Shown in pieces: positions 38,601 to 61,533 of a stretch of 64,000 bases of DNA (positions are counted from its first letter, which is position 1; each line of letters starts with the position of its first letter). Source of the DNA: Nitrosopumilus sp. (lineage in GTDB: Archaea; Thermoproteota; Nitrososphaeria; Nitrososphaerales; Nitrosopumilaceae). A model generated the notes under the pieces. That model was not told where the DNA came from, made no database searches, and saw only the letters and a list, made by a program, of their open reading frames with translations. The stretch lies in NCBI GenBank assembly GCA_965205215.1, contig OZ242041.1, positions 1,184,001 through 1,248,000 of the forward strand, read 5' to 3'. A program made the position numbers and the translations under genes.

Positions 38601-38845
38601 CCACCATAACCCTGACCTGGGACCCCGCCGGCGACGACTCGATCACCGGGTACAAGATACTCTCCAGGACGCCCCACACCCAGACCGAGCTCTCCGTACT
38701 GGTCGATGACACCGGCTCGTCGGACGCCTCCTACGTGGCAGAGGGTCTCGACCCCGATACCGTCTACGTCTTCCGCGTGATAGCCGTCAACGAGCACGGC
38801 GAGTCGGACCGCTCCAACTTCGTCAGGCTCTCCACCCTGCCGTAG
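29612..38845 (+). CDS. giant surface/secreted protein (3077 aa): LVIVD-like beta-propeller repeats, DUF5011 Ig-like, PKD-like, FN3 and two DUF285/BspA-like repeat blocks
   Basis: Hydrophobic N-terminus; GVQIIDVTDP blades; YxDAGAxCxDxxDGDL; AGPDQ..Y.W; W..P...I.GY; 25-aa WDVSSVTDM..MF repeats. Confidence 0.92.
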   Translation: MAVVPLIAVAAAGSAPYGGTDLPATGEAYPGTGLPGAAGAWPEPGPAAPAGLLGHAHAEPSQPVTGRLVPVSSVWDGADGFTALDGPRSAAAFQIGRGTYVAVASQGDGIQIIDVTDPANPAAAASFMDSSIRELAGARAIEAFETGGRTYAIVAGFSDDGVQIVDVSDPRRPVAAGHIGAADLREFDGPSDVAVFRAGGGLYAAVTTSQSNTVQIIDIADPLNPAPAGRVQDDQHLELNGASGVDTFETGGGVYAIAVGYRDNGVQIVNVTDPHAPAAAGSLADSASLELHHAFDVETFESGGDVYAAVAGYEDYGIQVINVTDPLNPAPAGRVTTRAGGGEFSRVVQIDLFEAGGATYAVAPAYQFGSIHLVDLADPHNPADLAHIRPSGYSTGYGIEVFEAGGGLYAIYTELTSDNAHILRISLSVDRPPRLVPNPPLPASIQAGSAYEDAGAACVDEVDGDLTGQIRATSTVDPALPGDYTVTYACADSAGNEAVATRTVTVTGPVPATPPAGAPAITVVGANPAEVAVGGAYADAGATCADEADGDLTGSIRTTSYVNVHAHGNYTVTYSCADSAGNEAVATRTVSVIDADAPRIALLGNSAVRMYAGDAYADAGATCIDRVEGDLSDYVAAAGNVDTAAAGRYAVTYTCADSAGNEAAATRTVLVLDPTYLIADGVGGYTELEGASGVAVFERGGSTYAIVAAAVDDGVQVIDVTDPNRPAAAGSIPDGPELELDGASGVAVFERGGSTYAIVAAYGDDGVQVINVTDPNRPAAAGSISDGPELELDGASGVAVFERGGDTYAIVAAAVDDGVQVIDVTDPNRPAAAGSIPDGPELELDGASGVAVFERGGSTYAIVAAYGDDGVQVIDVTDPNRPAAAGSISESRHHHLYHPTDVAVFERGGSTYAIVAAYYDDGVQVINVTDPYNPAAAGKQGYDDSSLDGLSGVTAFEDGGRTYAIITQTLRDGIRIVDVTNPSGPVLRNVIYDNEILRLNGASDAATFRAGGSTYAIVAASYDDGAQIIPVAVTAAARAPPTIALNGASPDRIEAGSAYADAGASCTDDIDGDLTDLVQAISDVNAAVPGNYTVTYSCSDSVGSTATAVREVVVEDTRPPTLLSAAYVIYDGTLQMNFSEPLSPAVHWDRLHVRDTGGSSGGVTLDGAPGSVHGATLTATLSASQMGAVGNLTAPQLDIGRGAVADLYGNGIAAAPDRAIALHDRNLPPTVEAGPDQTVYGGQDAALNGTASDPDGDSMTYLWTHDRPDLGITLADPAAPSTTFAAPQVGSNATVTFTLAATDAHNATSTDRVTVTVARLNGLPTVEAGPDQNAYMGQAVALTGTASDPDGDSMTYLWTHDRPDLAITLANATSTSATLTAHRVPSDTTISVTLTAHDGAASSSDSLNVTIRYVNTTVVWTPDQAPGRYGISRIALTGTTPGTIQATWDEPTREPFKYRISWAKVDEPYRSYTAPSGNAFPTTTSHTITGLEEGHTYKVNMRADYNGYAGPWSGDIIVAVAGSAANSPPTVEAGPDQTVTGGQNATLAGTASDPDGDSMTYLWTHDRPGLGITLADPAAPYTTFAAPQVASNATVTFTLAATDAHNATASDTTTVTIMPGTPEPVEAHVIKAPDAPQNLRATPAHDSVILAWDPPDDDSITGYRVLSTSPANQSRMSVLVAQTNGTEASYTVTDLRPSTAYVFGVAAVNEHGESGPSEPVIVYTAAPAHTHFVTTWGTAGANESITIPVGGVAGTYTVDWGDGTVSANVTGNQVHAYGTPGTHTVRIYGDFTRIHLNELYPNVGKLQSIEQWGDIRWESMSGAFEGASNMVYRATDAPDLSGVTDTSWMFRGATSFDGDLSAWDVSSVTNMYYMFHGATSFNGNVSTWDVSSVTDAAHMFSRAHSFNADISAWNVSSVTDMHGMFSQATSFNGDISAWNVSSVTDTHSMFPFATSFNGNISAWDVSSVTDMRNMFSYSTSFNGDISAWDVSSVTDMSYMFNEASSFDGDISAWDVSSVADMSSMFSDADRFNGNISAWDVSSVTDMYRMLDGASSFNGDISAWNVSSVADMRQMFSGATSFDGDISAWDVSSVTDMSYMFYGTTSFNGDISAWDVSSVADMRQMFDGADAFDQNLGNWYMVLDDLQVDGADGSVGVISAQNAFLATQGPVYGMGPGGDSDSFEIVNGSTLRLKAPLGDNPARSSYAVTVTSAGGFGTGNSRTFEIAAAEGYNAPPVVEAGADQTVREGDTVTLSGTASDDDRDGTDTLTYLWSHDSSLDIAFANSTAPYTTLTAPEVPSDTTVTITLTADDGTHASSDTLALTVTDTAPVSDALQPSAFVTTWQTTAANEPITIPVGGAAGTYTVDWGDGTVSADVTGDQTHTYHAAGTYTVSISGDFARIHLNGDANAAKLRSIDQWGAAEWESMELAFKGASSMVYRATDSPDLSGVTSMRHMFHGASSFDGDLSSWDVSSVTNMIGAFRDAATFDGDISSWDVSGANDMRRMFHGASSFNQDLSSWDVSGAIAMTGMFYGASSFNGDVSSWDVSSVTDTRYMFRDAASFNQDLSSWDVSSVATMVDMFYGASSFDGDISSWDVSSVATMAGMFYGASSFDGDISSWDVSSVASTADMFRGASSFNGDLSSWDVSGATDMGDMFRQAGSFARNLGSWYITLDDTAISSAGETLAISAQNAYLDGQNPDYSVADARFAVAGGALAINPGQAPQPGSYNVTIASAGGFGTGNSRVVEITVDLGQAVRPPEAVEPAANQTGQDDPPANRPPAVQAGPDLTAAEGSTVTLSGTASDPDGDALSYLWAHDSQTPISLDGPATLSPSFTAPQVSSNTTITITLTATDARNATATDSLTVTVTDAPQPGSTPPDAPQNLQAASTTNTTITLTWDPAGDDSITGYKILSRTPHTQTELSVLVDDTGSSDASYVAEGLDPDTVYVFRVIAVNEHGESDRSNFVRLSTNVTDAPQPDSTPPDAPQNLQAASTTNTTITLTWDPAGDDSITGYKILSRTPHTQTELSVLVDDTGSSDASYVAEGLDPDTVYVFRVIAVNEHGESDRSNFVRLSTLP
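31688..32311 (+). repeat. four near-identical 156-bp tandem propeller-blade repeats (ABAB)
   Basis: GGCGTGGCCGTCTTTGAGAGG recurs at 31688, 31844, 32000 and 32156. Confidence 0.9.
35126..36025 (+). repeat. DUF285 block 1: 12 x 75 bp
   Basis: 25-aa period in translation. Confidence 0.9.
36944..37618 (+). repeat. DUF285 block 2: 9 x 75 bp
   Basis: 25-aa period in translation. Confidence 0.9.
38210..38836 (+). repeat. near-perfect tandem duplication (315-bp period) of the terminal FN3 domain
   Basis: 38210-38521 vs 38525-38836 differ only near the start. Confidence 0.92.
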
Positions 38846-39140: not shown

Positions 39141-40733
39141 TCACGTCGCCGCGCCACCGCCACCGCCACCGCCACCGCCACCGCCACCGCCACCACTACC
39201 GCCACCACCCCGCACGTCCTGCAGCCCGCGCGCGACCCTGTCCGGCGCGCCCATGCCGCCGCTTGCCATGACGATCCGGAACATGTCCGCCATGTCTGCC
39301 GCCATCTTCCTGAACGCGTCCTGCACCTCCTGCGCCCCGCGGGAAACGGACTGATCGTCACTGCCGCCTCCCGGGAGCCCGTCCCGGCCAAACGCCGCCC
39401 CGTTTCCGGGCCGGGGGAGGACCGAAACCGAGTCCAGATATTTCTCAAAGCCGCTGAACACGTTGATCCTCCACGACGCCTTGGCGTACTCTGCGCGCAG
39501 CGTCTCTGGGTACAGCACGGCCTGCTTTTCGTACGAGTCGCGCGGGGCGTGCCCCAGCACGTGGTCTGCCGCGTACGGCGCGCACCCAGAGGCCAGCAGC
39601 GTGCTCTTCAGCAGGTCGCGCACCTCGTGCGAGCGCATCATGTACGTGTGCGGGGCGATCTTCTTCTGTATGCCGGCGTTGGCGGCCGCCGCGGAGAACT
39701 TTGAGGACACCCAGACGGGGCTGACCGGGGTGCCGCGCTGCGTTACGAACAGCGGCTCGTCCGCGCCGTGTTTTTTCCCGTATGTGGACTCCTTCCACGC
39801 CAGGCAGTCCCGCAGGTGGGTTACGGCGTCCCTGTCTATGAACGTGGTGTATGGCATGCCGGTCTTGACGCGGACCAGCCTGACCGGCACCGGGCACCGG
39901 TCCAGATCCCACGAGGAGCGGTCCTCCGTCCCAAAGTGCTTTACCATCTGCGGGTACGCCTCAAAGTTGAACCTGTCTGCCATGGTGCTCGAGTCAAGCC
40001 CCGCCTGGAACTTTGCCATCATCACGGCGCGCGCCGTGACGTCCATCCCGCCTGTCGTCATCACCTTGTAAAAGTCCATGAGGCTCATGCCGGAGTCGAT
40101 TGTAACGCCGCCATCGCCATCGCCGCCGCCGTTATGGCGCCTCCTGCCGATTTTTACGTCGACCGGCACGTCGTGCGCGGCAAAGTACGACTTTACGGCG
40201 GCGCACTTGAGCCTGGTCGTGTTTGCAGAGTAGCCTGCTCCGGCCAGCTCCGCCACGTACTGCCTGACTGCGCGGCGCGCGGCCTGCGCGCCGTTTGCCT
40301 CGCAAAATTTGAGCAGCTCCTCCACGTCTGAGAACGACCTGCCGCCTGCGCCCCCAGCCGGGAACTCGGCTCCGGGCAGCCACCTGTTGAACGCCCCGAG
40401 CTCTTCTGCGTACGTCTGCCTGGTGCCTCCCCTCTTCCTCCTCGCTCCGCCGACGTTCTTCAGCCTGGACGAGCCCAGCTGGCCAAGCCAGAACCTGGCG
40501 CTCTCTAGCTCCAGTATGCGGCAGCCGGGCTTTGCCTCCTGCAGTATGCCGCGGGAGCAGGCCCACTCGACGGCGCGCCCGGCCGCCCGGCCGCCCCCGG
40601 TCCCGGCCGCCACCCGGCCCGCCTCGACGTATCCGGCCGCCGGCAGCGATTCCAATATCGGTATGATGTCGCGTTCCGCCTCGTCCAGTTCCTTCCTGCC
40701 TGCGGTGCGCAGCACCTCGTAGTAGAGCACCAT
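39141..40733 (-). CDS. tyrosine recombinase/integrase, copy A
   Basis: SANT......AVKSYF core-binding region, RVKT, SHEVR (HxxR), LGH..Y; SD GGTGA upstream. Confidence 0.88.
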   Translation of the reverse strand: MVLYYEVLRTAGRKELDEAERDIIPILESLPAAGYVEAGRVAAGTGGGRAAGRAVEWACSRGILQEAKPGCRILELESARFWLGQLGSSRLKNVGGARRKRGGTRQTYAEELGAFNRWLPGAEFPAGGAGGRSFSDVEELLKFCEANGAQAARRAVRQYVAELAGAGYSANTTRLKCAAVKSYFAAHDVPVDVKIGRRRHNGGGDGDGGVTIDSGMSLMDFYKVMTTGGMDVTARAVMMAKFQAGLDSSTMADRFNFEAYPQMVKHFGTEDRSSWDLDRCPVPVRLVRVKTGMPYTTFIDRDAVTHLRDCLAWKESTYGKKHGADEPLFVTQRGTPVSPVWVSSKFSAAAANAGIQKKIAPHTYMMRSHEVRDLLKSTLLASGCAPYAADHVLGHAPRDSYEKQAVLYPETLRAEYAKASWRINVFSGFEKYLDSVSVLPRPGNGAAFGRDGLPGGGSDDQSVSRGAQEVQDAFRKMAADMADMFRIVMASGGMGAPDRVARGLQDVRGGGGSGGGGGGGGGGGGGGAAT

Positions 40734-41328
40734 GGTTTGTCACCTGACTTTAGTATGTGATGCTCCTTACAGACGCCGCGGATCCGCCGGAATCCCTCTT
40801 CCCCCCGATACGGACGGTGCCAAACGGCGGGCAGACGCAAATGAAAAGCATGGGATACCTAGCGCTTTTGCTCTATTAACCCTGTTTCCCAATCCTGCTT
40901 TTCCCGCCAAGATCGCGAAGAGTTGGGAACGCGGCGCGCCCGGGCGGCAAGGCCTGCTGATCGTATGGCGTCTGACGCCAGTGACATTCAAGGGGCGGGA
41001 GGAAGGGCGGCAGGGCGCGGGATCACTGCGGGCGCGCGTTCACGGGCCGCGCGCCGGTGGCGCACCGCGGTACGAGTCGCGTGCATGGTGGATGCGGGCC
41101 GCGCGCCATCGGGAGGCGGCAGGCACCACGGGGGGTACGGGAGGCGGCAGGCACCACGGGGGCGGGCGCAAGGGTGGGCCTCCCCGCGCCGTCACCTCCC
41201 CGCGCCCCGCCGAACACGCGCGCCGCCCCGTCTGGCACGTCCAGATCCCTGCCTGCCGGGAAGATCTGGAAGATGCGCATAGTGTTCTCCATCATCCTCT
41301 CGAACATGGCCCGCATGTCCTGCTGGCA

Positions 41329-42786
41329 TTACTGCTGCTCGTGGTGGTGGTGGTGATGGTGGTGTTGATGGTGGTGTTGATGGTGGTGTTGCAGCTGCTG
41401 CGCCCCCTGCGCCGCCCCGTCCGGCCCCCTGCGCCGCCCCGTCCGGCCCCCGCCCCCGCGCCCCCCGGGCCGGAACGCCTCCGAGTCCAGATACCTCTCA
41501 ATGCTGCTGAACACGTTGATCCTCCACGACGCCTTGGCGTACTCTGCGCGCAGCGTCTCGGGGTACAGCTCGGACTGCTTCTCGTACGAGTCGCGCGGGG
41601 AGTGGCCCAGCACGTGGTCTGCCGCGTACGGCGCGCACCCCGAGGCCAGCAGCGTGCTCTTCAGCAGGTCGCGCACCTCGTGCGAGCGCATCCTGTAGGT
41701 GTGCGGGGAGGCCCTCCTCTGTATGCCGGCGCTTGCCGCGGCCCTGGAGAACCTTTCGGATATCCAGCCCGGCCCGACCGGAGCCCCCCGCCGGGTGACA
41801 AACAGCGGCCCTGCCCCGTCGTGCCTCTTCCCCCCGCGCGCGTGCTCACTCGACGCCAGGTAGTCCCGCAGGAGGGACACCGCGTCCCTGTCTATGAACG
41901 TGGTGTACCGCATGCCCGTCTTGACGCGGACCAGCTTGATGGGGACGGGGCACCGGTCCAGGTCCCACGCGGAGCGGTCCTCCGTCCCAAAGTGCTTTAC
42001 TATCTGGGGGTACGCCTCGAAGTTGAACCTGTCTGCCATGGTGCTGGCGTCCAGCCCGGCCTGGAACTTTGCCATCATCACGGCGCGCGCCGTGACGTCC
42101 ATCCTCCCGGACACCATCACCTTGTAAAAGTCCATGAGGCTCATCCCGGGGTCGGCTGCGGCGCCGCGGCCGCCGCCGTTGTCGCCGCCGCGGCGCCTCC
42201 TGCCGACCTTCACGTCGACCCTCACGTCGTGCGCGGCAAAGTACGACTTTACGGCGGCGCACCTGAGCATGGTCGTGTTCGCGGAATAGCCGGATCCTGC
42301 CAGCTCCGCCACGTACCGCCTGACTGCGCGGCGCGCGGCCTGCGCGCCGTTTGCCTCGCAGAATTTCAACAGTTCCTCCACGTCCGAGAACGCTGCACCC
42401 GCCTCGCCCCCCGCCGGGAGCCTGGCATCCGGCAGCCACCTGTTGAACGCCTCGAGCTCCTCCGCGTACGTCTGCCTGGTGCCACCCCTCCTCCTCCTTG
42501 CGCCGCCGGTGTTCTTCAGCCTGGACGTGCCCAGCTGGCCCAGCCAGAACCTGACGCTCTCCAGCTCCAGCACGCGGCAGTCCGGATTTGCCCCTTGGAT
42601 TATCCCGCGGGAGCAGGCCCATTTTATGGCGCGCTCCACGGCGCGCCGGTCCCCGCCCCCGGCCGCCAGCCGGCCCGCCTCGACGTATCCGGCCGCCGGC
42701 AGCAGTTCCAATATTGGCGCGATGTCGCGCCCCGCCTCTTCCAGTTCCTTGCTGTCTGCGGGGCGCAGCACCTCGTAGTAAGGCAC
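41329..42786 (-). CDS. tyrosine recombinase/integrase, copy B
   Basis: Close paralogue of copy A with the same motifs; GTG start; His/Gln tail. Confidence 0.88.
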   Translation of the reverse strand: MPYYEVLRPADSKELEEAGRDIAPILELLPAAGYVEAGRLAAGGGDRRAVERAIKWACSRGIIQGANPDCRVLELESVRFWLGQLGTSRLKNTGGARRRRGGTRQTYAEELEAFNRWLPDARLPAGGEAGAAFSDVEELLKFCEANGAQAARRAVRRYVAELAGSGYSANTTMLRCAAVKSYFAAHDVRVDVKVGRRRRGGDNGGGRGAAADPGMSLMDFYKVMVSGRMDVTARAVMMAKFQAGLDASTMADRFNFEAYPQIVKHFGTEDRSAWDLDRCPVPIKLVRVKTGMRYTTFIDRDAVSLLRDYLASSEHARGGKRHDGAGPLFVTRRGAPVGPGWISERFSRAAASAGIQRRASPHTYRMRSHEVRDLLKSTLLASGCAPYAADHVLGHSPRDSYEKQSELYPETLRAEYAKASWRINVFSSIERYLDSEAFRPGGRGGGGRTGRRRGPDGAAQGAQQLQHHHQHHHQHHHHHHHHEQQ

Positions 42787-43647
42787 CGTGTTCAGTCACC
42801 CTTTCTTTAGTATGTGGTGCCCCCTGCGGGCGCCGCGGATCGGCCGGAATCCTCCACCCACCCGAAGTGGACTGTGCCGAGCGGCGGGGGGACGCGCATG
42901 AGAAGCATGAGATAATTAGCGCTCCTGCCCTATTAACCCTGTTTCCAAATCCGGCGCCCCGCCCTTCCCCGCAGTCGCGCCGCCGCCTCCGCCGCCTGTG
43001 CGCCCCTTGCGCGCTGCGGCGGCCCCCGCGTACCGGACGCCGCCCCCCCCGACCCGTGCGGCGGCCGCCAGCCGGGATCCGCGCGTGCCCGCCGCGGGCC
43101 TGCCGATCTCCTCCGCGGCAGCGCTCCTCCGCGGCACGGCGCAGCAGGCGCCTTCGCCGGCCGGCATCCCCGCCGCCGGCGCGTCAGGGCTTCGCCGGCC
43201 GTCGGACGCCGGCCCCGGCCCCGCGCCCCCCGATGCCGCAGCCGGTCTGCGCAGGCAGCCCGCGCCGCCCCCCGGCGCGGGCGCCAGAAGCGGCGCGGGC
43301 GCCGTCAGGGCCCCCGGCCGCCATGTGTGGCGCGCGCCGGGGGCCGAGGCGCGGGGGCGAGATCGGACGGCCGCCAAAGCCGGGCGGCGACGGCCGCGAC
43401 GGCGGGTTCTCACGGCCGGTGTATGCAGGATGGCATTATGGCGGCGGCCTCCAGACCGCTCCCCCCCCCGGTCCGGAATGGGGCGGCGCCGGCATCTGGC
43501 CCGATAGGCATTTAGCCAGATCTGGCCAAGGGGATCGCGGGTTGCTACCCATTCTGCAATCCCCGGCCGCCACCTATCCCTTTGACGTGTGGGTGGCGGC
43601 CGTGCCCGGCTTCCGAACCCGCGACAGGGCCAAATTTTACACTATTT

Positions 43648-43675
43648 TGCCGGCATAAGGATCATTATACCGCAT
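43648..43675 (+). other. dif-like recombination site, left (IRL): TGCCGGCATAA-GGATCA-TTATACCGCAT
   Basis: 11-6-11 imperfect palindrome with TAA-N6-TTA core. Confidence 0.8.
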
Positions 43676-43700
43676 AGTTACAGGGTCACGTCCCACAAGG

Positions 43701-43716
43701 CTTATTTAAGATTTTC
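43701..43716 (-). promoter_or_regulatory. BRE-TATA promoter inside the putative invertible segment, currently pointing left
   Basis: Minus strand GAAAAT-CTTAAATAAG; TTAAAT boxes also precede thiC, aroE, the AIM24 gene and the SDR gene. Confidence 0.7.
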
Positions 43717-43795
43717 AATGGCGGATTTTTCCCGCGCGTTATGCCGGCAAGTTTTCCGGCATAACGATCCGAATATTTGCAAAAATGCCGAAAAC

Positions 43796-43823
43796 TTCCG
43801 GCATAATGATCCTTATGCAGGCA
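43796..43823 (-). other. dif-like recombination site, right (IRR): TTCCGGCATAA-TGATCC-TTATGCAGGCA
   Basis: Reverse complement matches IRL at 24/28 with identical spacer GGATCA. Confidence 0.8.
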
Positions 43824-44007
43824 ATGTACGGCGCACAAGGCGTCTAGACGTGGGGGAGGGGACGCCCTGTGCGCCGCGGATCCCGCACTGCGGGACGCCC
43901 GGGTTCCAGACGGCCGCCCCTTCGGGGGCCGCAGGCGCCGCGCCCGCGGCGGCCTCCCCGGGGGGGGGGGGCGGCGTCCGGCCCCTGGATCGGTAGGTGC
44001 GCCTGAT

Positions 44008-47000
44008 ATGGGTAGGCGGCGGTTCGCGCAAACCCTGTGCCTTGCGGCCATACTTGCATTGGCGGCCGCGGCCCTCGCGGCGCCGGAGGGGCTCGCGGAG
44101 CCCGCCCTTGCGCAGGCCCTGCTTGACAACCCCGTGGCCGCCGGCAGTATTGCGGACACCGGCGATATCCTGCTTCGCGAAGCAACAAAAATTACCACCT
44201 TCGAGGTGGACGGCACCGTCTACGCGATAGTCACCATAACGTCAGAGACCTCGCATGCCGGCATCCAGATACTCAACCTCTCAAATCCCGCCGCCCCGAC
44301 CGCGGCAGGCAACCTGTCAGACACCGCGGACCTCCTGCTTACTTTCTCGCATGACGCGGCCGTCTTTACGGTCTCCGGCAACACGTACGCCGCAGTGACC
44401 TCGCCCGGAGACGGCGGCGTCCAGATGCTCCAGCTGGCAGACTCCGGCGGGCTGCTTGCAAACCCGACGGCCGCCGGAAATATTGAAGACGGCGGCGGGC
44501 GCCTGCTCGGCAACGCGAAAGACATATCCCTCTTTGAGGTCTCCGGCGCCACGTACGCGGCAGTGGCCGGAGGCGCCCGTTTCGGAGACAACGGCGTCCA
44601 GATGCTAAAGCTTACGAGTGACACGGGGACCCTGCTTGCAAACCCCAGGGACGCCGGAAAGATTGCAGACAACAACTCCCTCCTGCTTGAAGGCGCCGAC
44701 GGCATCGCCACCTTTGAGGTCTCCGACGCCATATACGCCGCGGTCGCCGCAGGCCGCGACGACGGCGTCCAGATGCTAAAGCTTACAAACGACGCGGGGA
44801 CCGCCCTGCTTTCAAGCCCCGAGGACGCCGGAAAGATTGCAGACGGCGGCTCCCTCCTGCTTGACGGCGCCGATGGCATCGCCACCTTTGAGGTCTCCGG
44901 CGCCATATACGCCGCGGTCGCCGCAAGTGGCGACAACGGCGTCCAGATGCTAAAGCTTACAAACGACGCGGGGACCGCCCTGCTTGCAAACCCCACGGAC
45001 GCCGGAAACATTGAAGACGGCGGCTCCCTCCTGCTCGACAACCCTGATGACATCACCATCCTCACGGCGTCCGGCACCATATACGCCGCGGTCACCGCAA
45101 GTGGCGACAACGGCGTCCAGATGCTAAAGCTTGCAAACTCCAGCGGGCTGCTTGCAAACCCGGAGGACGCGGGAAAGATTGAAGACGACGGCGATACCCT
45201 GCTTGAAAGTCCGACCGGAATCGCAACATTCGAGGATTCCGGAACAACGTACGCCGCGGTCGCCGCACTCTTCGAAGACGGCGTCCAGATACTGCAGCTC
45301 ACCGCCGCCGGCACCCCCGCCGACAACACCGCGCCGACTGTGGACGCGGGGGCGGCCCAGACCGTAAGCGAGGGCGATATGGTGACGCTGACGGGCACCG
45401 CCACGGACCCCGACGATAGCGACGTTCTGACGTACGCGTGGACGGTGAGCCCCGCAACCCCCGCCATTACCATAAACGACGACGACGCCCTCTCGACCAC
45501 GTTCACGGCCCCCGAGGTCACAACGGACACCGACTTTGTATTCACGCTTACCGTAAACGACGGCACCGTGGACGTATCGGACACCGTTACGGTCACCGTA
45601 AGCAACGTGAACCGCGCGCCCATAGCGGACGCCGGGGGCGACCTCATAGTCGCGCAGGGCGTCACCGTAATGCTTGACGGCACCGGCTCGTACGATCCGG
45701 ACGGCGGCGTCCTCGACTACACCTGGCTCTCGATCGGGAATGTCGTCACGCTCACGGGCGGCAACACCGCGACCCCGACGTTCACGGCCCCCTCCTCTAC
45801 TGCAACATTCATCATCGCCCTTGTCGTCAACGACGGGGAACACAATGACCGGGACGAAATCACGGTAACCGTCCCCGCGCTGCCGGTATCGGACGCCGGC
45901 TCGGACGTCCCCGCGCTTGCAGGCGACACCGTTGCGCTCAACGGCACCGGCTCGACGGGCACCGCCCTCACGTACTTTTGGAACCAGACGGCCGGCCCCG
46001 ACGTAACGCTCGACTTTATAGACGTCCGGCCGGTGGGCTGGATTGGGGACACCGAGCCTGACGGGCTCCTGCTCCACAATCCGCTCGGCGTCGCGGCATT
46101 CGAGCACGGCGGAACGCCGTATGTGGTCGCGGCCGCAAACGTCGACAACGCCGTCCAGGTAATCGACATGTCCGACCCCGCAAGCCCGGCGGCCGTAGGC
46201 AACCTTACTGACGGCGACAGCCGCGAGCTCAGCGGCCCCCGCGGCATCGACATATTCGAGCACGGCGGCACCATATACGCCGCGGTCACCGCCGAACGTG
46301 ACGACGGCGTCGAGATAGTCAGTTTGGCCGACCCCGCAAACCCGGCGGGGGTGGGCCGCCTCACCAACGATAACAACCGCGAGCTCAACGGCCCCCGCGG
46401 CATCGACATATTCGAGCTCGGCGGCACCGCGTATGCGGCGGTGGCCGGGCGTGACGACGACGGCGTCCAGATAATCAGCCTGGCCGACCCCGCAAACCCG
46501 GCTGCGGCGGGCAAGATTGGCAGGGGCGCCAACGTCCAACTTGACAACCCCGAGGACGTCGCCGTATTCGGACACTCCGGCGCCACGTATGCGGCGGTCA
46601 CCGCGACCAACGACGACACCGTCCTGATACTGAAACTGACGGACGGCTCGGGGCAGCTGCTTGCAGACCCCGTAGTGGCAGGCCTGCTCGAAGACAACTC
46701 CACCCTGGCGTTAGAAGACCCCCGCAACATCGACATATTCGAGGCAGGCGGCACCGCGTACGCCGCGGTCGCCTCATCCTCAGACCACGGCGTCCAGATA
46801 ATCAGCCTGGCGGACCCCGCAAACCCGGCTGCGGCGGGCAAGATCGTAGCCTCTGACGGCTCTGGCCTTCATCTTGGGACTGCCTATGGCATCGACATAT
46901 TCGAGGTCAACGGGGCGCCGTACGCCGCGGTCACCGCACAGGCCGGTCTTGGTAACGTCGAGATAATCGATTTGTCCGACCCCGCAAACCCCGAGCGCGT

Positions 47001-50000
47001 GGGCGACTTTCACAGCAACGCCACCTTCCAATTACCCAATACGAACGGCGTCGCCGCCTTCGAGGTCGGCACCAAGACCTACGCGGCGGTCACCTCGGCC
47101 GATTTCGTCGACATTCCCCTCAACGGCATCCGGGTCCTCGAGCTGGCCGACCGCGCCGCCCCCAGATTCACGGCGCCCGCCGCCCCCGCCACCCTCGAGT
47201 TCGACCTCGCCGTAACGGACGCGGCGTCCCAGGCCGACACCGACTCCGTGACGGTCGCCGTCCGCGACCCGTTTGTCACCACCTGGAACACCACTGCCGC
47301 CAACCAGGCCATAAAGATCGACGTCGGCACCTCCACCGCCCCCTACGACGTCGACTGGGGCGACGGCTCCGCGCAGACGGGCGTCACGGGCGACCAGACC
47401 CACACGTATGGGGAGGCGGGCATCCACACGGTCTCCATCACCGGCGGCCTCGAGCAGTTCAGGCTCGGCGACACGGACAGGGCCAACAGGGAGCGCCTCG
47501 CCTCCATAGAGCAGTGGGGCGACGTCGGGTGGACCGGCATGCGGGACGCGTTCCGGGGGGCGTCGAACATGGCATACAACGCCGCCGACTCGCCGGACCT
47601 CTCCGGCGTCACCGACATGGGCGGCATGTTCCGCGAGGCCACCGCGTTCAACGGCGACATATCCGGCTGGGACACCTCCGGCATAACCGACATGTCCGAC
47701 GCGTTCAACGGCGCCCGCTCCTTCAACCGGACCCTCAGCGACTGGAACACCTCGTCCGTCACCGACATGGGCAACATGTTCAACGGCGCCCACGCGTTCA
47801 ACGGCGACATATCCGGCTGGGACACCTCCCGCGTCACCGACATGGGCGGCATGTTCAACGGCGCCATAGCATTCAACCGGGACATCAACACCGTGACCGA
47901 CACGGCCACCGGCGAAACCCGGTGGGACACCTCGTCCGTCACCGACATGGGCCGCATGTTCAGCGGCGCCGCCGCCTTCAACGGCAACGTATCAGCCTGG
48001 GACACCTCGTCCGTCACCGACATGAACCGCATGTTCTTCTCGGCCCAGGCGTTCGACCAGGACATCGGCGCGTGGGACGTCTCGGCCGCCACCGACATGG
48101 ACCGCATGCTCACCGGCGCCACCGCCTTCTCCCAGAACCTCGGAAAGTGGTACGTCACGCTGGACACGGACGCCCCCCGGGTGTCGGATACGGACAGGGT
48201 GGCGGGCACCATATCGGCCCAGAACTCCGTGCTTGACGGCCACTCCCCCTCGTACGCCGCCGCGGCGGAGGGCGACTCGGCAAAGTTCGAGGTGACGGCG
48301 GCCAAGGTCCTCAGGCTGAAGGACGGCCAGACGGTCACGCCGGACACGACGCTCGAGGTTACGGTAACGGTCAACGGCACGGGCGTCCTTGGGACGGGCA
48401 ACAGCGTGACGGTACCGGTCGCCGCCGCGGCCTCCGCAAACACCGCGCCTACCGTCAACGCGGGTACGGACCGGGCGGTGAACGAGCGCACCGTCGTGAC
48501 GCTGGCGGGCACCGCCACGGACCCCGATACGGGCGACAGCCTGACGTACGCGTGGACGGTGAGCCCCGCATCCCCCGCAATCACGATAACCAACAGCGAC
48601 GCGCTCAGCGCCAGCTTTACGGCCCCCGAGGTGACATCGGACACCGACTTTGTATTCACGCTTACGGTAAACGACGGGACCGTGGACGCAACGGACACCG
48701 TCACAATCACCGTAAGCAACGTCAACCGCGCGCCTACGGCGGACGCCGGGGCCGACCAGGCGGTCAACGAGAGGGAGGCCGTGACGTTTGATGGCAGGGG
48801 CTCGTCTGACCCGGACGGCGACGACCTCACGTATTCTTGGAGCCAGACTGCCGGCAGCCCCACCGCATCGCCCACGTCCACCGACGGCCCAATACTCGCG
48901 TTTGTCGCCCCCGAGGTGTCATCGGACGCCGTCCTCACCTTTACGCTTACCGTATCCGACGGCGGCTCCCTGTCAGGCACGGACACGGTCAACGTAACCA
49001 TAAGGAACGTCAACCTCCCGCCTACGGCGGATGCCGGCGCGGACCAGGCCGCAGACGAGAACACCGTCGTGACGCTTGACGGCTCCGGCTCGTCGGACCC
49101 CGACGGCGACCGCCTCTTGTATTCGTGGAAGCAGACTGCGGGCAGCCCCACCGTGTCGCTCTCAAGCAACACCGCGCAGAGCCCCACGTTCACGGCCCCG
49201 GCGGTCAACGCCGAGACGGCCCTCACCTTCAGGCTTGCCGTAAGCGACGGGACGGCGGACGTCGACACCGACACCGTCGTGGTAACGGTGCGGGACGTGT
49301 CCGACCTGACGGTAAGCGCGGGCGCGGACCGGGATGTAGACGAGGGTGACACGGTCACGCTGGCCGCGACGGTATCAAACGCCACGCTGCGGGTCACCTT
49401 TGAGTGGACCACAGATTCGAGCATCGCCATATCGGACGACGACACCAGGAGCGCCTCGTTTACGGCGCCAATGGTCGACTCGGACACCGACTATACCTTT
49501 ACCGTCACGGCCACCGACGGCAACAAGACGGCGACCGACTCCGTTGTCATAACCGTGCTAGACGTCCCCCTGGCGGTCGACGCGGGTGAGGACCGGACCG
49601 CAGACGAGGGCTCTACGGTGGACCTTGCGGGGACGGTGGAGGGCGCCTCCCTGCAGGTTTCCTTTGCGTGGACCACAGATTCGGGCATTGCACTGTCGGG
49701 CAGCGGCACCCGGAGCGCCTCGTTCACCGCCCCCATGGTCGACGCCGACACGCAGTACACCTTTACGCTCACGGCCACCGACGGCGCCGAGACCGCGTCC
49801 GATACCGTCACGATAACCGTCGCCGACTCGCTGCCGCTCGAGGCGGACGCGGGGAGAGACCGCACCGTCCGCGGGGGCGACTCCGTCACCCTTACGGGGA
49901 CCGTGCGCAACGCCGCGTCCTCCAGCCCCACATACTCGTGGACCCAGACGGCGGGCACCCCCGCAGTATCCCTGAGCGGCAGCTCCACCCCCGCCGCCAC

Positions 50001-51966
50001 GTTCACGGCGCCCGACGACTCGGCCACCCTCACATTCAGGTTTGCGGCCACCTCCGGCCCCGCCACCGCGGCTGACGACGTCACCATAACGGTCGTCGCG
50101 CGCGAGATGGTGGTCGCCGACGCGGGGCCCGACCAGTCAGTCGACCCGGGCGACGCCGTACATCTTGACGGCACCCGGTCGGCGGGCGAGGCCCCCCTGG
50201 CGTACTCGTGGACCCAGACTGCGGGGCCCGTCGTGCTCATAACCGCCGCGGGCACGGCCTCCCCCTCGTTTGAGGCCCCCGACTTCCGCGCGTCGCTCAC
50301 ATTCGAGCTGACCGTAACCGACGCGGACGGCGGCACGGACACGGACACCGTTACGGTAACGGTCCGCAACATCGTACCCGTCGCGCACGCCGGGTACGAC
50401 CGGAACGTCGGCGAGGAGATGACCGGGACGCTTGTCGGCTCGAGATCGTACGACCCGGACGGCGACCCCCTCACGTATTCCTGGACCCAGACTGCCGGCA
50501 GCCCCGCCCTGGCCCTCTCCGATTACAGCGCGGCGAACCCGACGTTTGCCGCCCCCCGGGTCTCGGCGGACACCCCGTTCACCTTCCGGCTTACCGTATC
50601 CGACGGGCTGGCCTCGGACACTGACACAGTCGTAATAACGGTAAGGGACGACAACGTGAACCGCACCCCCGACGCGCGCTCGGGGCCGCACCAGACGGTC
50701 CGCGAGGGCGAGACCGTATACCTTGACGGCGCCGGCTCGTCGGACCACGATACCGGCGACGTGCTGCGGTACTCGTGGGAGCAGACGGCGGGAAGCCCCG
50801 AGGTTGCGCTCTCCGACCACACCGCGGCGAGCCCGACGTTCGTCGCGCCCCAGGTCGGCTCGTACACGGAGCTCACGTTCACGCTTACCGTATCCGACGG
50901 GCTGGCCACCGACACGGACACCACGACCATAAGGATACTCGACGTGCCCCGCAACAGCCCGCCGGCCGCGGACGCGGGTGCGGACCAGACGGTCACGGAG
51001 GGCGACACGGTCCGCATGTACGCCACGCGCTCGTCTGACCCGGACGACGGCGACTACCTCAGGTATTCGTGGAGCCAGACTGCCGGCCCCGCAGTCGCCC
51101 TGTCGAGCACCGGCTCGTCGTGGCCCACGTTCACGGCGCCCGACGTGCTGTCGGACACCGCCGTCACATTCGAGCTTACCGCGACCGACAGGAGGGGGGC
51201 CACGGACACGGACACCGTTACCATAACCATACTGGACGTACCCGAGACGGACGCCGACCCGATCCTCACCATCGTGCATGAGCGCGCAAGCGTCAAATCG
51301 GGCGACCACTCCACCAGCTACAAGTCCGACGCCCGCTGCTGGGACCTCGAGGACGGGGACATCTCCAACCTTGTAACCACGTCCGTGGCGTTCCACCCAA
51401 ACGGCAGGGCTACCATATCCTACGAGTGCACCGACAGCGACGGCAACCGCGACACGACCGTGCGCATAGTCGCGGTGTCCGGCTCGGCCCCGCCCGCGCT
51501 GTACCTGAACGGGCTTCCCCTGGTGGAGGTCGCGCAGGGCTCCTCATATGTGGACGCGGGCGCCACCTGCGTTGACCCCGAGGAGGGCGACATCAGCGGC
51601 AGGGTCAGGGCCTCGGGTACGGTCGACACCTCCCGCGCGGGCACCTACACCGTGTTCTACTCGTGCTATGACGGCGACGGCAACGGCGACACCGGCGTCC
51701 GGATAGTGATTGTACAGCCCGCGGGCGCCGACCTGGCCCCGAGGCTGACGGTGCCCGGCGACGTCACCGTTGCGGTGGGCGGCTCGTTCACGCCGCCCGC
51801 GGCCACCTGCACCGACGCCGAGGACGGGGACATCACCCACAAGGTAGGGGTCGACGACTCCGCGGTCGACACCTCCACGCCCGGCAGGTACACCGTATTC
51901 TACACCTGCGCCGACTCGGCCGACAACTTTGTCTCCGGCTCCCTGTACGTCAGCGTCAACCCGTAG
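44008..51966 (+). CDS. giant surface/secreted protein (2652 aa): signal peptide, two beta-propeller regions, many PKD-like domains, DUF285 block, C-terminal DUF5011-like domains
   Basis: MGRRRF + hydrophobic signal; SD AGGTG at 43995-43999; repeat motifs shared with 29612..38845. Confidence 0.92.
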   Translation: MGRRRFAQTLCLAAILALAAAALAAPEGLAEPALAQALLDNPVAAGSIADTGDILLREATKITTFEVDGTVYAIVTITSETSHAGIQILNLSNPAAPTAAGNLSDTADLLLTFSHDAAVFTVSGNTYAAVTSPGDGGVQMLQLADSGGLLANPTAAGNIEDGGGRLLGNAKDISLFEVSGATYAAVAGGARFGDNGVQMLKLTSDTGTLLANPRDAGKIADNNSLLLEGADGIATFEVSDAIYAAVAAGRDDGVQMLKLTNDAGTALLSSPEDAGKIADGGSLLLDGADGIATFEVSGAIYAAVAASGDNGVQMLKLTNDAGTALLANPTDAGNIEDGGSLLLDNPDDITILTASGTIYAAVTASGDNGVQMLKLANSSGLLANPEDAGKIEDDGDTLLESPTGIATFEDSGTTYAAVAALFEDGVQILQLTAAGTPADNTAPTVDAGAAQTVSEGDMVTLTGTATDPDDSDVLTYAWTVSPATPAITINDDDALSTTFTAPEVTTDTDFVFTLTVNDGTVDVSDTVTVTVSNVNRAPIADAGGDLIVAQGVTVMLDGTGSYDPDGGVLDYTWLSIGNVVTLTGGNTATPTFTAPSSTATFIIALVVNDGEHNDRDEITVTVPALPVSDAGSDVPALAGDTVALNGTGSTGTALTYFWNQTAGPDVTLDFIDVRPVGWIGDTEPDGLLLHNPLGVAAFEHGGTPYVVAAANVDNAVQVIDMSDPASPAAVGNLTDGDSRELSGPRGIDIFEHGGTIYAAVTAERDDGVEIVSLADPANPAGVGRLTNDNNRELNGPRGIDIFELGGTAYAAVAGRDDDGVQIISLADPANPAAAGKIGRGANVQLDNPEDVAVFGHSGATYAAVTATNDDTVLILKLTDGSGQLLADPVVAGLLEDNSTLALEDPRNIDIFEAGGTAYAAVASSSDHGVQIISLADPANPAAAGKIVASDGSGLHLGTAYGIDIFEVNGAPYAAVTAQAGLGNVEIIDLSDPANPERVGDFHSNATFQLPNTNGVAAFEVGTKTYAAVTSADFVDIPLNGIRVLELADRAAPRFTAPAAPATLEFDLAVTDAASQADTDSVTVAVRDPFVTTWNTTAANQAIKIDVGTSTAPYDVDWGDGSAQTGVTGDQTHTYGEAGIHTVSITGGLEQFRLGDTDRANRERLASIEQWGDVGWTGMRDAFRGASNMAYNAADSPDLSGVTDMGGMFREATAFNGDISGWDTSGITDMSDAFNGARSFNRTLSDWNTSSVTDMGNMFNGAHAFNGDISGWDTSRVTDMGGMFNGAIAFNRDINTVTDTATGETRWDTSSVTDMGRMFSGAAAFNGNVSAWDTSSVTDMNRMFFSAQAFDQDIGAWDVSAATDMDRMLTGATAFSQNLGKWYVTLDTDAPRVSDTDRVAGTISAQNSVLDGHSPSYAAAAEGDSAKFEVTAAKVLRLKDGQTVTPDTTLEVTVTVNGTGVLGTGNSVTVPVAAAASANTAPTVNAGTDRAVNERTVVTLAGTATDPDTGDSLTYAWTVSPASPAITITNSDALSASFTAPEVTSDTDFVFTLTVNDGTVDATDTVTITVSNVNRAPTADAGADQAVNEREAVTFDGRGSSDPDGDDLTYSWSQTAGSPTASPTSTDGPILAFVAPEVSSDAVLTFTLTVSDGGSLSGTDTVNVTIRNVNLPPTADAGADQAADENTVVTLDGSGSSDPDGDRLLYSWKQTAGSPTVSLSSNTAQSPTFTAPAVNAETALTFRLAVSDGTADVDTDTVVVTVRDVSDLTVSAGADRDVDEGDTVTLAATVSNATLRVTFEWTTDSSIAISDDDTRSASFTAPMVDSDTDYTFTVTATDGNKTATDSVVITVLDVPLAVDAGEDRTADEGSTVDLAGTVEGASLQVSFAWTTDSGIALSGSGTRSASFTAPMVDADTQYTFTLTATDGAETASDTVTITVADSLPLEADAGRDRTVRGGDSVTLTGTVRNAASSSPTYSWTQTAGTPAVSLSGSSTPAATFTAPDDSATLTFRFAATSGPATAADDVTITVVAREMVVADAGPDQSVDPGDAVHLDGTRSAGEAPLAYSWTQTAGPVVLITAAGTASPSFEAPDFRASLTFELTVTDADGGTDTDTVTVTVRNIVPVAHAGYDRNVGEEMTGTLVGSRSYDPDGDPLTYSWTQTAGSPALALSDYSAANPTFAAPRVSADTPFTFRLTVSDGLASDTDTVVITVRDDNVNRTPDARSGPHQTVREGETVYLDGAGSSDHDTGDVLRYSWEQTAGSPEVALSDHTAASPTFVAPQVGSYTELTFTLTVSDGLATDTDTTTIRILDVPRNSPPAADAGADQTVTEGDTVRMYATRSSDPDDGDYLRYSWSQTAGPAVALSSTGSSWPTFTAPDVLSDTAVTFELTATDRRGATDTDTVTITILDVPETDADPILTIVHERASVKSGDHSTSYKSDARCWDLEDGDISNLVTTSVAFHPNGRATISYECTDSDGNRDTTVRIVAVSGSAPPALYLNGLPLVEVAQGSSYVDAGATCVDPEEGDISGRVRASGTVDTSRAGTYTVFYSCYDGDGNGDTGVRIVIVQPAGADLAPRLTVPGDVTVAVGGSFTPPAATCTDAEDGDITHKVGVDDSAVDTSTPGRYTVFYTCADSADNFVSGSLYVSVNP
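47596..48150 (+). repeat. DUF285 block 3: 7 repeats, one with a 10-aa insertion
   Basis: 25-aa period in translation. Confidence 0.88.
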
Positions 51967-52239: not shown

Positions 52240-52375
52240 TGCCTGACGCCTGCCAGAGTCGACAGAGTCGACAGAGTCGACAACTTTGTCGACACCCGTG
52301 CCTGACGCCTGCCAGAGTCGACAGAGTCGACAAAGTCGACAAAGTCGACAAAGTCGACAACTTTGTCGACACCCG
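52240..52375. repeat. nested tandem repeat containing ten GTCGAC palindromes
   Basis: Two units TGCCTGACGCCTGCC-(ARAGTCGAC)n-AACTTTGTCGACACCCG with n=3 and n=5. Confidence 0.9.
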
Positions 52376-52502
52376 CGCCTGCAATCTTGCAGTCCGTAGT
52401 CTGGAAGATGAAGATTCGTCACGGGTAAAGGGTATCGGGTTCTTGATCAAGGACACTGCATGCGACATAACTAGGACGCTGTTTCGTCAAAGAACAGAAA
52501 AG

Positions 52503-52527
52503 TGGACCGGGTGGGGTTCAGATCCAC
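52503..52527 (-). other. degenerate tRNA 3'-end remnant (Ala-like), possible att site
   Basis: Minus strand GTGGA-TCTGAAC-CCCAC-CCGGTCC-A resembles T-arm + acceptor strand + discriminator; followed by a T-rich tract; near the GC shift. Confidence 0.4.
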
Positions 52528-52703
52528 AGTGGATCTTAATCCCTTTCATAACGGCAGAAAGCGAACTGGGACGCTTACAATATCCCTACTCTCCTTTTTT
52601 TCTAAACGAATTATTGCATATTCTGTAGGCATAGTTTGAAACCACTTCGGTCGTCTTACGAGAATCAACCGCTTATGGTTTTCTGACATTGTCTAACGTT
52701 AAA

Positions 52704-53441
52704 TTAGATTAGTTTTGTATGTCGAATTTTTTCAATCAAGTTAACCAGCATCTCACCCTGATTGGATCTTTTAAAGTCCACGTAAGTTGCCCTAGTTTGT
52801 ATGTTCGAGGGTATCTCCGTACCTTCTTCGACGATCAAAATGGTCGGTTTTCCAGTAGCCTGTCCTATCTCATCAATAACATTCTGGGCGGACTGGAATT
52901 TTGCATTTTTAGTTTCGGTGTCTTTTGTGAGCATGGCAAGAAGCGCGTTGGATTCGTCTATCATTCTGCTGATTTGTACACCTGGTGGCAGATCCGGCTT
53001 GCCTCTCTCGGAGGCGGACACGACCGTAAAGCCCATGGCTTTCATGAACCTACTGACAAGACTGTACAGGTCGTCATTCTCCGGCCGCATGGAATAGCTG
53101 ATAAAGACGGTAAATCCTTTCAGCGAGAACGGGGGGAGGCCTTCTTTCAATGGTACGACTGTACGTAGCTCACCTTCAATCAATCTGTAGCGGTATTCTC
53201 CGCTGATACCTACATCACTATAGATGACAAAGAGTCCTGATTTCCCTTCAATATTTTTGATATTTTTCAGTCCAACGATTTCCGATCCAAACGGCTTAAT
53301 CACTTGCACGTCGGTTTCATGTACAACGCCACCGTTTGAGTCATAAAACTTGATGGAATACTTTCGTTGTTCGTCTGACATGTTTGTCATGAAGATTTCA
53401 CTACCTTCCCATAATATGTCGTATTGACCGGTAAGATACAT
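52704..53441 (-). CDS. TIR-like (CAP12/Pycsar-effector type) domain protein with N-terminal beta-rich domain
   Basis: VFISYS, QNVIDEIG (catalytic Glu position), EIPSNI. Confidence 0.75.
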   Translation of the reverse strand: MYLTGQYDILWEGSEIFMTNMSDEQRKYSIKFYDSNGGVVHETDVQVIKPFGSEIVGLKNIKNIEGKSGLFVIYSDVGISGEYRYRLIEGELRTVVPLKEGLPPFSLKGFTVFISYSMRPENDDLYSLVSRFMKAMGFTVVSASERGKPDLPPGVQISRMIDESNALLAMLTKDTETKNAKFQSAQNVIDEIGQATGKPTILIVEEGTEIPSNIQTRATYVDFKRSNQGEMLVNLIEKIRHTKLI

Positions 53442-53693
53442 AACATATCAATAGTTGACTGGTATTTATTACGCGCGACGGCAGGTCTTGCAAAATGGGA
53501 TCAGTCACCTCAGACAGCTGGCTGGCATGGCGTTTTTACTATCGAACGCCAAGCAGTATTGACTCGTCACGGTATGGACAGTGACAAGTATGTAAAATGC
53601 CGCAAGATAGACGCGTCCCAATCTCTCCCGTAATATGAGAAAGAGCCCTTCATCTATTCCGTATACGTCGATTACGCATAAACTCTAACCTAC

Positions 53694-53725
53694 AAGATCT
53701 TCATATGTCGATATATGAAGATCTT
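53694..53725. repeat. 32-bp palindrome (13-6-13)
   Basis: AAGATCTTCATAT-GTCGAT-ATATGAAGATCTT. Confidence 0.85.
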
Positions 53726-53768
53726 TTCGTTGAATTACATTGTATGATTCTGTACTTTTTGCACATTC

Positions 53769-56977: not shown

Positions 56978-57261
56978 GCGTCTTCATTCCCTTGTACTAT
57001 CCTACAGGCATTCATGTTGGAACTTTATAAAGAATCTGGCAGTTTCAATATTTGGAAAAGTACTAACCGCTGTTGGGCAATCCAGAGCAGATCAGATTCA
57101 TCATAAAGAATGATACGATCAGTGACGAGACTATTCTGATCTGATGCACATAACCACTTGACAAGGACATCCCAAAAGCCGACTAACCAAGTTTGCAAGC
57201 GGATCGGAGAACGACAAGCTTAAATCAAAGATTCTATTACAAGGAATTTGACGGTGATCCA

Positions 57262-57543
57262 ATGATAAAAAAGAAAAGTTACGGAACATCTTCAGAAAAA
57301 AAGCTAGAAGAAAAATCACGACAAGTACTTAAAACATGTACTATTACTAAAATTGACCCCACACGATACCAAATAACGTCACAATCAGATAAGAACAAAT
57401 GCTATACGGTCAGATTTGTGAATACGTGGCAGTGCTCGTGCAAATACCATACTAGTGGCCATGGTGACTGCAAGCATATCATGGCCGTTCAAACTATCAA
57501 AAGAATGGGTGACATGGGATTTGGTGGGATAACAACGTCATAA
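57262..57543 (+). CDS. short SWIM zinc-finger protein, possibly a transposase remnant
   Basis: W.CSC.........CKHI.AV motif. Confidence 0.65.
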   Translation: MIKKKSYGTSSEKKLEEKSRQVLKTCTITKIDPTRYQITSQSDKNKCYTVRFVNTWQCSCKYHTSGHGDCKHIMAVQTIKRMGDMGFGGITTS

Positions 57544-61521: not shown

Positions 61522-61533
61522 ACGGAGCGGATC

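Follow-up and report, generated by a model that had tools for sequence, protein, structure and literature searches.

The question raised by this locus is whether the short intergenic segment between two tandem tyrosine recombinase genes and a giant surface-protein gene is a promoter that can be turned around by recombination. The locus lies in a 64,000-nucleotide stretch of a Nitrosopumilus sp. genome (the window; bases 1184001-1248000), and the genome (G000) is one contig of 2,098,239 bp with 60.3% G+C. Proteins such as the endonuclease Bax1 and an archaeal-type phosphoglycerate mutase (NCBIfam) mark the window as archaeal. With a probability of about one half, G000 has five invertible promoter cassettes (invertons), of which the 176-bp segment 43648-43823 is one. 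The cassettes would form a small network of invertible promoters, each with a transcription factor B recognition element and a TATA box (BRE/TATA), served by a domesticated integrase clade.

The architecture of an inverton had been proposed in a sequence-only reading of this DNA, and its parts were all recovered: inverted repeats of the core type around a short segment, a single TATA between them and none near the ATG of the giant gene, and recombinases that are adjacent or would act in trans. The case is now stronger, since four more cassettes of the same geometry were found in the genome and all five recombinase paralogs lie beside giant genes.

In the proposed mechanism, the cassette would be composed of two dif-like core sites with inverted arms of ~11 bp, (C)ATAA / TTAT(G), and an asymmetric 6-bp spacer. 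The sites would be inverted, at a distance of 147-149 bp, and would enclose the only BRE/TATA that can serve a giant gene with a leader. A lineage-specific clade of tyrosine recombinases, two members of which are encoded in tandem 0.9 kb away, would bind the arms. Strand exchange within the matching spacers would flip the segment. The off-centre TATA, ~44 bp inside one site, would then lie at about this distance inside the other, so that the other flank is transcribed. The three cassettes with GGATCA spacers (in the window, at 981.7 kb and at 1109.7 kb) would be served in trans.

The sites, their spacers and the cassette copies

The left core-type site, S1 (43648-43675, plus strand), has the 11-6-11 form TGCCGGCATAA-GGATCA-TTATACCGCAT. 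The right site, S4 (43796-43823, minus strand), reads TTCCGGCATAA-TGATCC-TTATGCAGGCA, with a spacer reverse-complementary to GGATCA. As had been noticed before, the two 28-bp sites are inverted and identical at 24 of 28 positions, and their match is far above chance. They constitute the best inverted repeat of the intergenic region (arms 43647-43672 and 43799-43824, 26 nt, 92% complementary, 126 nt apart), with 30/40 matches in inverted against 25/40 in direct comparison over 40-nt windows. Each site is an imperfect palindrome in itself. Since the sites are palindrome-like and the central GATC is palindromic, their orientation rests on the outer two spacer bases and the asymmetries of the arms.

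A single BRE/TATA element (43695-43716) is located between the sites, in agreement with the sequence-only reading; the box is TTATTTAA (43702-43709), with AA on either side. Three features had escaped that reading. The first is an internal perfect palindrome, CGTTATGCCGG-N8-CCGGCATAACG (43737-43766), formed by two everted half-sites and invariant in all three copies of this cassette. The second is a third site, S3 (43754-43781, plus strand; CCGGCATAA-CGATCC-GAATATTTGCA), which is direct to S4 and has a degenerate right arm. The third is the repetition of the whole unit across the genome. The half-site CCGGCATAA is dedicated to the cassettes: it occurs five times in the window against 0.45 expected, a count reached in none of 100 shuffles, and four of the five occurrences fall within 43650-43806. 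In the whole genome there are 40, of which 11 are inside the three type-1 cassettes, while 9-mers of the same composition average 18.7.

The type-1 cassette is found three times in the genome in one orientation, namely in the window (copy W), at 1109.7 kb (copy C, 79-91% identity) and at 981.7 kb (copy B, 88% identity). The unit includes an AT-rich flank, S1, the TATA, the internal half-sites, S4 and ~130 nt of a G+C-rich leader. The flank, CCAAATTTTACACTATTT (43630-43647), is kept in all three copies and carries a weak minus-strand match to the promoter matrix (9.6 bits). Homology extends 18 nt to the left of S1 (118 nt between W and C) and, beyond S4, for at least 130 nt to the right. It is then interrupted by a variable stretch and picks up again at the Shine-Dalgarno (SD) sequence, the start codon and the signal-peptide codons. 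Copies B (genome 981715-981889) and C (1109713-1109888) are each placed upstream of another giant gene.

A second family (type 2) has an interior unrelated in sequence to type 1 and the same plan, and it is present at two loci. The cassette at locus D (genome 1973311-1973476) is flanked by a minus-strand giant gene and a plus-strand recombinase paralog, that at locus A (61698-61860) by two divergent giant genes. Both families show the geometry site-40-TATA-108-site, and each of the five cassettes of G000 encloses one TATA. A sixth, homologous to those of loci A and D, was detected in the sister species G002 (L044, 7675/7842, sites 167 bp apart). There, the inverted sites and TATA lie between a recombinase homologue (60% identity), which is one of the two closest found in that species, and a divergent gene for a 1825-aa PKD protein. 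The near site faces the recombinase gene in W, in D and at the G002 locus. A search of related genomes for the same cassette had been suggested; blastn with a 341-nt query gave no match in any of 60 relatives.

The arrangement is rare in the genome. The 21 ATAA-N6-TTAT sites of the genome form four pairs at 60-350 bp, all four inverted and with exactly reverse-complementary spacers. With the pattern A[TC]AA-N6-TT[AG]T, 68 sites form five pairs in this range and all five are the cassettes; they are again all inverted, with spacers that are exact reverse complements and start-to-start distances of 147, 148, 148, 148 and 149 bp. A general scan for inverted repeats with arms of at least 18 nt and an AT-rich interior returned 11 pairs, four of which are cassettes.

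Next to the spacer, all cassettes have similar arms, (C)ATAA / TTAT(G), with CAA / TTG in locus D. On the contrary, the spacers differ by family: GGATCA in type 1, TGCCCA in type 2 and TGGCTA in G002. Within each pair, they are exact reverse complements in all six cassettes, though the outer arms have diverged (24-30 inverted matches over windows of 38-40 nt). Spacers that are free between cassettes and locked within a pair are typical of crossover regions: strand exchange requires such matching, and an operator does not. This argument is inferential and its instances are few, because the type-1 copies are paralogs and the cassettes of loci A, D and G002 are homologous.

The tyrosine recombinases

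Two recombinase genes are read on the minus strand to the left of the cassette. The distal one, W1 (P0003; 39141-40733, 530 aa), matches PF02899 at 25.4 bits and stays under the cut-off of PF00589, with 22 bits. The proximal one, W2 (P0002; 41329-42786, 485 aa), reaches 28.1 bits for PF00589, above the cut-off of 27.1, and 29.3 bits for PF02899, and has a His-rich C-terminus. The earlier description of two paralogous tyrosine recombinases ~0.9 kb away is accurate: they are 75% identical (353/471) and W2 starts 862 bp from S1. The PF00589 matches of the genome number five, all from this paralogous family, and the other three genes are at 84430-86007, 1973859-1975469 and 601720-603366. All five are located 167-2408 bp from an open reading frame (ORF) of at least 1500 aa. 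Such flanks make up 2.9% of the genome, as calculated from a filtered list of 16 ORFs which misses a few giant ones. Near copies B and C, neither a recombinase gene nor a remnant is present; a degraded recombinase was rejected at both, as tblastn gave only the five paralogs.

The AlphaFold2 model of W2 has a mean predicted local distance difference test score of 85.8. Its best Foldseek matches are XerA (5hxy), lambda Int, IntI, XerH and Cre, with E values from 7e-7 to 1e-3 over ~320 columns that include both domains. The modelled fold is that of a tyrosine recombinase with catalytic and core-binding domains. Residues K289, H369, R372 and H395 align to catalytic residues of XerA and are invariant in the 107 aligned members of the family. 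Sequence profiles gave less: hhalign of the family alignment with one XerA covered the N-terminal helices only, and the family profile found, among Protein Data Bank sequences, only XerA at E 0.48. Box II alone was confirmed by a hidden Markov model (HMM), and box I was aligned neither by the HMM nor by hhalign.

A role of host XerA, which had been named as an enzyme to assay, is not supported, as its model (NF040815) has no match in G000 at E <=1e-30 and none was found in five other genomes of the family; in the available text of Cortez et al. (2010; PMC2958812), Thaumarchaea are described as being without xerA.

The two closest homologues, P0004 (78% identity) and P0005 (66%), are both on one 14,967-bp ENA contig. 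The recombinase family is present in 36 of 121 genomes of the genus, in up to seven copies per genome, and its distant members look like integrases of mobile elements. The metagenomic relatives (32 loci, L091-L121 among them) are all at most 39% identical and not informative for the clade of W. In 28 of these 32 loci, the contig ends <1.1 kb upstream of the recombinase relative, which fits a variable junction (an att site or heterogeneity).

The copy number and spread of the family, the integrase-like behaviour of its distant members with their broken contigs, and the multiple copies of the cassette would also suit a second explanation. According to this, the sites are relics of other rearrangements or of mobile DNA, either as att- or dif-like sites of integrating elements or as places of exchange between the three giant-gene loci. 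This is quite improbable. Conservation continues past both sites into the shared leader and signal peptide, so that the sites are not the termini of an element, and the interval between the flanking giant genes contains no other genes of mobile elements. Termini of a miniature inverted-repeat transposable element (MITE) or other mobile element were rejected because homology runs past the terminal repeats and all copies are upstream of giant genes. Exchange between loci would delete parts of the chromosome, the cassettes being in direct orientation and 118-128 kb apart, and the constant pairing at 147-149 bp favours partners within a cassette.

Just past the stop codon of W2, a 98-aa ORF (window 41023-41316, minus strand) begins with MRAMFERMMENTMRIF and resembles the C-terminal tail (…QKMAADMADMFRI…) that is still carried by W1 and by the paralogs at loci A and D. 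As judged from these sequences, W2, which ends in a His/Gln run, seems to have had its tail split off by a frameshift or a stop codon.

Promoter direction and the search for the inverted form

The gene downstream of the cassette (44008-51966, plus strand) encodes a giant secreted or surface protein of 2652 aa. By translation and Pfam, this consists of a signal peptide, LVIVD-like propeller repeats, DUF285 repeats, 12 K319L-like PKD domains and Ig-like domains. Genes of G000 are mostly leaderless: an AT-rich peak at -40 to -20 of the ORF starts resolves into a BRE-like AA and a TATA motif, and the TATA is 25-40 nt ahead of the start codon in most of them. A matrix trained on the upstream regions of 1340 filtered ORFs of this genome gives no match of at least 7.5 bits between S4 and the ATG at 44008, and the cassette TATA is therefore the sole candidate promoter for the giant gene. 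The earlier statement that this gene has an SD and no TATA near its ATG holds in this respect, the SD-like AGGTG being at 43995-43999.

The G+C-rich leader (43824-44007, plus strand) is kept in the three type-1 copies and shows stacked hairpins, with a predicted fold of -65 kcal/mol (RNAalifold). A control at the RNA level can be considered at this point, in which the palindromes would be hairpins of a long 5' leader starting at ~43731 and would govern the stability or translation of the giant mRNAs. A long, conserved and strongly folded leader, an SD-using gene in a mostly leaderless genome and a plus-strand promoter score which is the higher of the two are in line with it. Compensatory change, on the contrary, is limited to 2 of 44 pairs, and a known RNA family was rejected, as no Rfam family matched at gathering score. 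S1 is upstream of the plus-strand start and thus absent from the RNA, and the recombinase link and the spacer matching would be left without explanation. This alternative is considered very improbable.

The direction of the promoter determines the assembled state. With the same matrix, the cassette TATA scores 13.7, 13.5 and 12.4 bits on the plus strand in W, C and B, respectively, and 12.6, 12.5 and 10.2 bits on the minus strand; the upper decile of real gene upstreams begins at 11.6 bits. The predicted transcription start is at ~43731 (plus) or ~43680 (minus), and the type-2 TATA is no clearer as to direction. One site centre is ~40-44 bp from the TATA centre in all cassettes, and transcription fired outward would therefore start at the inner edge of that site. 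If the promoter fires outward, the giant genes would be OFF and the recombinases ON as assembled; if inward, the giant genes would be ON, with leaders of 220-290 nt. The suggestion that the TATA points away from the giant gene and that the assembly captures the OFF state is therefore possible and unsupported, given 13.7 bits on the plus against 12.6 on the minus strand.

Several observations weigh against inversion and have to be set beside the evidence above. The near-equal scores on the two strands are one of them, since with a bidirectional promoter a flip would merely shift the TATA by 60 bp. All six cassettes (three of type 1, two of type 2 and that of G002) have a single orientation, with the TATA-distal site facing the giant gene; the three type-1 copies are collinear, and so are the two type-2 cassettes with that of G002. 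The opposite orientation was met in no cassette copy, relative or contig set. Such collinearity argues against frequent and unbiased flipping and is compatible with a strongly biased switch. None of the eight sequencing runs found is recorded as RNA. In the Logan contigs of four of them (X1-X4), no strand-changing joint was found in any. This test is weak, since variants are lost in contigs and the three repeat copies interrupt them.

Concerning the recombinases, the invariant D246 (in GLD) takes the Arg-I position, as placed by a global pairwise alignment to one XerA with a score of 58 and no statistical support; the same procedure with a second XerA gave no usable alignment. The residue R253, seven positions further, is ~90% conserved. 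The nucleophilic tyrosine may be Y401 or Y408, its placement being ambiguous. The locus of the fifth paralog is without an inverted pair. Furthermore, only the clade near W (G000 and G002) is tied to surface-protein genes, and more distant members are not beside giant genes. Finally, the best-conserved part of the type-1 cassette is its internal half-site array (43716-43823), which also fits an array of operators.

Many of these points would be expected from a fixed regulatory region. In such a case, a static and possibly bidirectional TATA would be controlled by palindromic sites acting as operators, on DNA that is looped or wrapped and not rearranged. The protein, which would occupy the sites 148 bp apart as well as the internal half-sites, would perhaps be the recombinase paralogs themselves, as catalytically inert regulators that repress or activate the giant genes. 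The symmetry of the TATA, the extra half-sites with their conserved array, the uniform orientation of the six cassettes and the Asp at the Arg-I position agree with this. In addition, both predicted starts are a few bases ahead of a palindrome (S1 in the case of the minus-strand start and 43737-43766 in that of the plus-strand start), and archaeal repressors typically bind just past the transcription start. Yet operators need no family-specific spacers that are exactly reverse-complementary within each pair in 6/6 cassettes, and K, HxxR and H are kept throughout the 107 aligned sequences of the family. No gene for another DNA-binding protein is present either, as no coding ORF for one was found between W2 and the cassette. 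As the main rival of the invertible reading, a fixed, protein-bound region is regarded as rather unlikely.

The cassette was also searched for in assembled contigs of the runs and in relatives. The Logan contigs end at 43659 and resume at 43878. The first break is due to merging with copy C, because the last W-specific base is 43629 and the last W-specific 31-mer ends at 43659. Only a C-type interior variant was seen in the contigs, at 43692-43715, and was attributed to variant collapsing; one X4 contig ends exactly at 43675 and is not interpretable. In 151 genomes of the genus, the 14-mer ATAAGGATCATTAT is paired in G000 only, with single matches in ten other genomes. The paired pattern had no match in the JGI metagenome contigs. 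A generic paired pattern gave 21 matches outside G000 in the same 151 genomes, with counts at control level and none with reverse-complementary spacers; one has a 5/6 spacer match inside a membrane-protein ORF and one is a 148-bp tandem duplication. In the inverted-repeat scan of the relatives' loci, only L044 of 18 showed a comparable cassette near the recombinase. Among five further loci, one (L081) shows inverted 30-nt arms ~100 bp ahead of the recombinase gene, beside a helix-turn-helix gene and not a giant gene.

Known systems and the surroundings of the cassette

In the fim system of Escherichia coli, the tandem paralogous tyrosine recombinases FimB and FimE are encoded beside fimS, the invertible promoter of a surface structure. 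The fimS element is 314 bp long, with 9-bp repeats, and uses IHF and Lrp. The locus studied here resembles it in having two tandem paralogous recombinases next to a candidate promoter switch of a surface gene, and differs in the lack of sequence relationship and in having five cassettes per genome with a 148-bp segment. In the vsa, vsp and vpma systems of Mycoplasma (HvsR/Xer1), a recombinase lies beside a family of surface genes which share a 5' leader and signal-peptide region with the recombination site. There, one promoter moves among silent genes, unlike the present case where each gene has its own complete cassette.

The invertible promoters of capsular polysaccharide and surface-protein loci in Bacteroides (Mpi/Tsr; compare PMC4747536) have a similar plan, with many short (~150-200 bp) inverted-repeat promoter segments before surface-structure genes. 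The recombinase is encoded beside some of them, and others depend on a shared one in trans. Differences are the archaeal host, the BRE/TATA promoter, the dif-like 11-6-11 sites and the thaumarchaeal recombinase clade with Asp at Arg-I; also, inversion was not observed here. Archaeal dif is described, in the part of PMC2958812 that was available, as having 11-bp imperfect inverted arms, a 6-bp spacer and ATAA/TTAT beside the spacer. The cassettes share with Xer/dif the 28-bp site of this architecture and a recombinase whose best structural match is XerA. They diverge from it in having ten sites in inverted pairs upstream of genes instead of one at the terminus, and in that XerA was not found.

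Concerning Archaea, the accessible text of the preprint of Chanin et al. (10.1101/2023.03.11.532203; PhaVa) reports 12 putative invertons in 42 genomes and calls the topic minimally investigated. These are, similarly, segments flanked by inverted repeats in an archaeal chromosome, detected from reads of Euryarchaeota and Crenarchaeota isolates, and that text describes no recombinase, site logic or target for them. The earlier claim that no archaeal equivalent had been described is too broad in view of these candidates, none of which is characterised. In a 2021 review of archaeal tyrosine recombinases, as far as its available text goes, inversion appears as large chromosomal events or as an assay and phase variation as bacterial only. 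The part available of Krupovic et al. (2019) catalogues thaumarchaeal integrases as parts of mobile elements. A literature search returned no archaeal invertible promoter with its recombinase, sites and target; it did not cover supplements, of which Data S2 of Chanin et al. and the tables of Krupovic et al. may bear on this.

Promoter-inversion phase variation is a cornerstone of bacterial surface variation, and the archaeal cases in print are, in the texts available, uncharacterised candidates at the level of reads. If the invertible reading is true, an ammonia-oxidising archaeon would diversify giant adhesin-like surface proteins by DNA flipping, BRE/TATA promoters could be packaged as invertons, and, in a lineage without XerA, the control of host genes would have been taken over by an integrase clade for dif-like sites. 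The 28-bp sites, the 148-bp segment and the five candidate enzymes provide a testable substrate for archaeal recombinase biochemistry and possibly for genetic tools. A more extended version can be put forward tentatively. In this, a XerA-less thaumarchaeon would have domesticated an integrase clade, with Asp for Arg-I, as a genome-wide engine of phase variation, whose five dif-like 148-bp cassettes switch giant adhesin-like proteins. GGATCA and TGCCCA would serve as 'address codes' against cross-recombination, and at three loci a flip would alternate transcription between a surface gene and a recombinase gene. Such an invertible promoter with a defined mechanism would be the first in Archaea.

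Around the cassette, the intergenic region to the left (42787-43629) is a non-coding spacer with a core of 81-86% G+C. Its final 100 bp (43530-43629) are common to copy C, and in blastn the segment 43530-44117 aligns to genome 1109595-1110249. A protein-coding gene in 42787-43647 was rejected, since G+C in the ORFs does not differ among the three codon positions. A 400-bp tract at window 43000-43400, which lies between the start of W2 and the cassette, reaches 84-86% G+C with no codon-position signal, and similar G-rich tracts are found upstream of the recombinase paralog at locus D.

A second giant ORF, of 3077 aa (window 29612-38845, plus strand), ends 296 bp from the 3' end of W1, and so W1 and W2 are sandwiched between two giant genes. 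On reading the AT-rich region upstream of this ORF (genome 1213170-1213611), no paired sites were seen. In the case of copy C (genome 1110130-1110690; L088), the conserved ATG and signal-peptide codons are out of frame with the 2790-aa ORF that starts at 1110690, with an intervening stretch of Pro/Ser-rich low-complexity sequence. A frameshift, a pseudogene or an assembly error may account for this.

Beyond the 2652-aa gene, the window (52300-64000) contains a low-G+C island (36-47%), followed by a gene resembling superfamily 1 helicases (54530-56977) with weak matches to anti-phage models, a tRNA-Ile (57890-57978, minus strand) and a DNA methyltransferase-like gene (59284-61521). The region may be a defence or mobile island.

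Other repeats were noticed in the relatives and elsewhere in the genome. In G018 (L050, 10314-10441), three tandem 44-bp palindromic units (ATAACTTCT-N14-AGAAGTTAT) lie 1 kb downstream of a recombinase homologue with 43% identity. In two other members of the genus, an inverted pair CAGTTAACCCAAA(G/T)GTGA… occurs at L080 1181-1404, L084 5205-5428 and L052 780-900, with arm starts ~100-205 bp apart and each a few kb from a recombinase homologue; it may be another cassette or MITE family. One of the few other long inverted pairs of G000 is a 37-nt repeat (33 matches) around 156 bp at 647040-647269 (L089), which precedes a 542-aa ORF by ~100 bp. A family of small hairpin-type repeats (…GGTTCCGTTGCTAATTCGTGAC… and its complement) is located at genome 687894-687978, 1107678-1107763 and 945393-945468, with one of the copies 2 kb to the left of cassette C.

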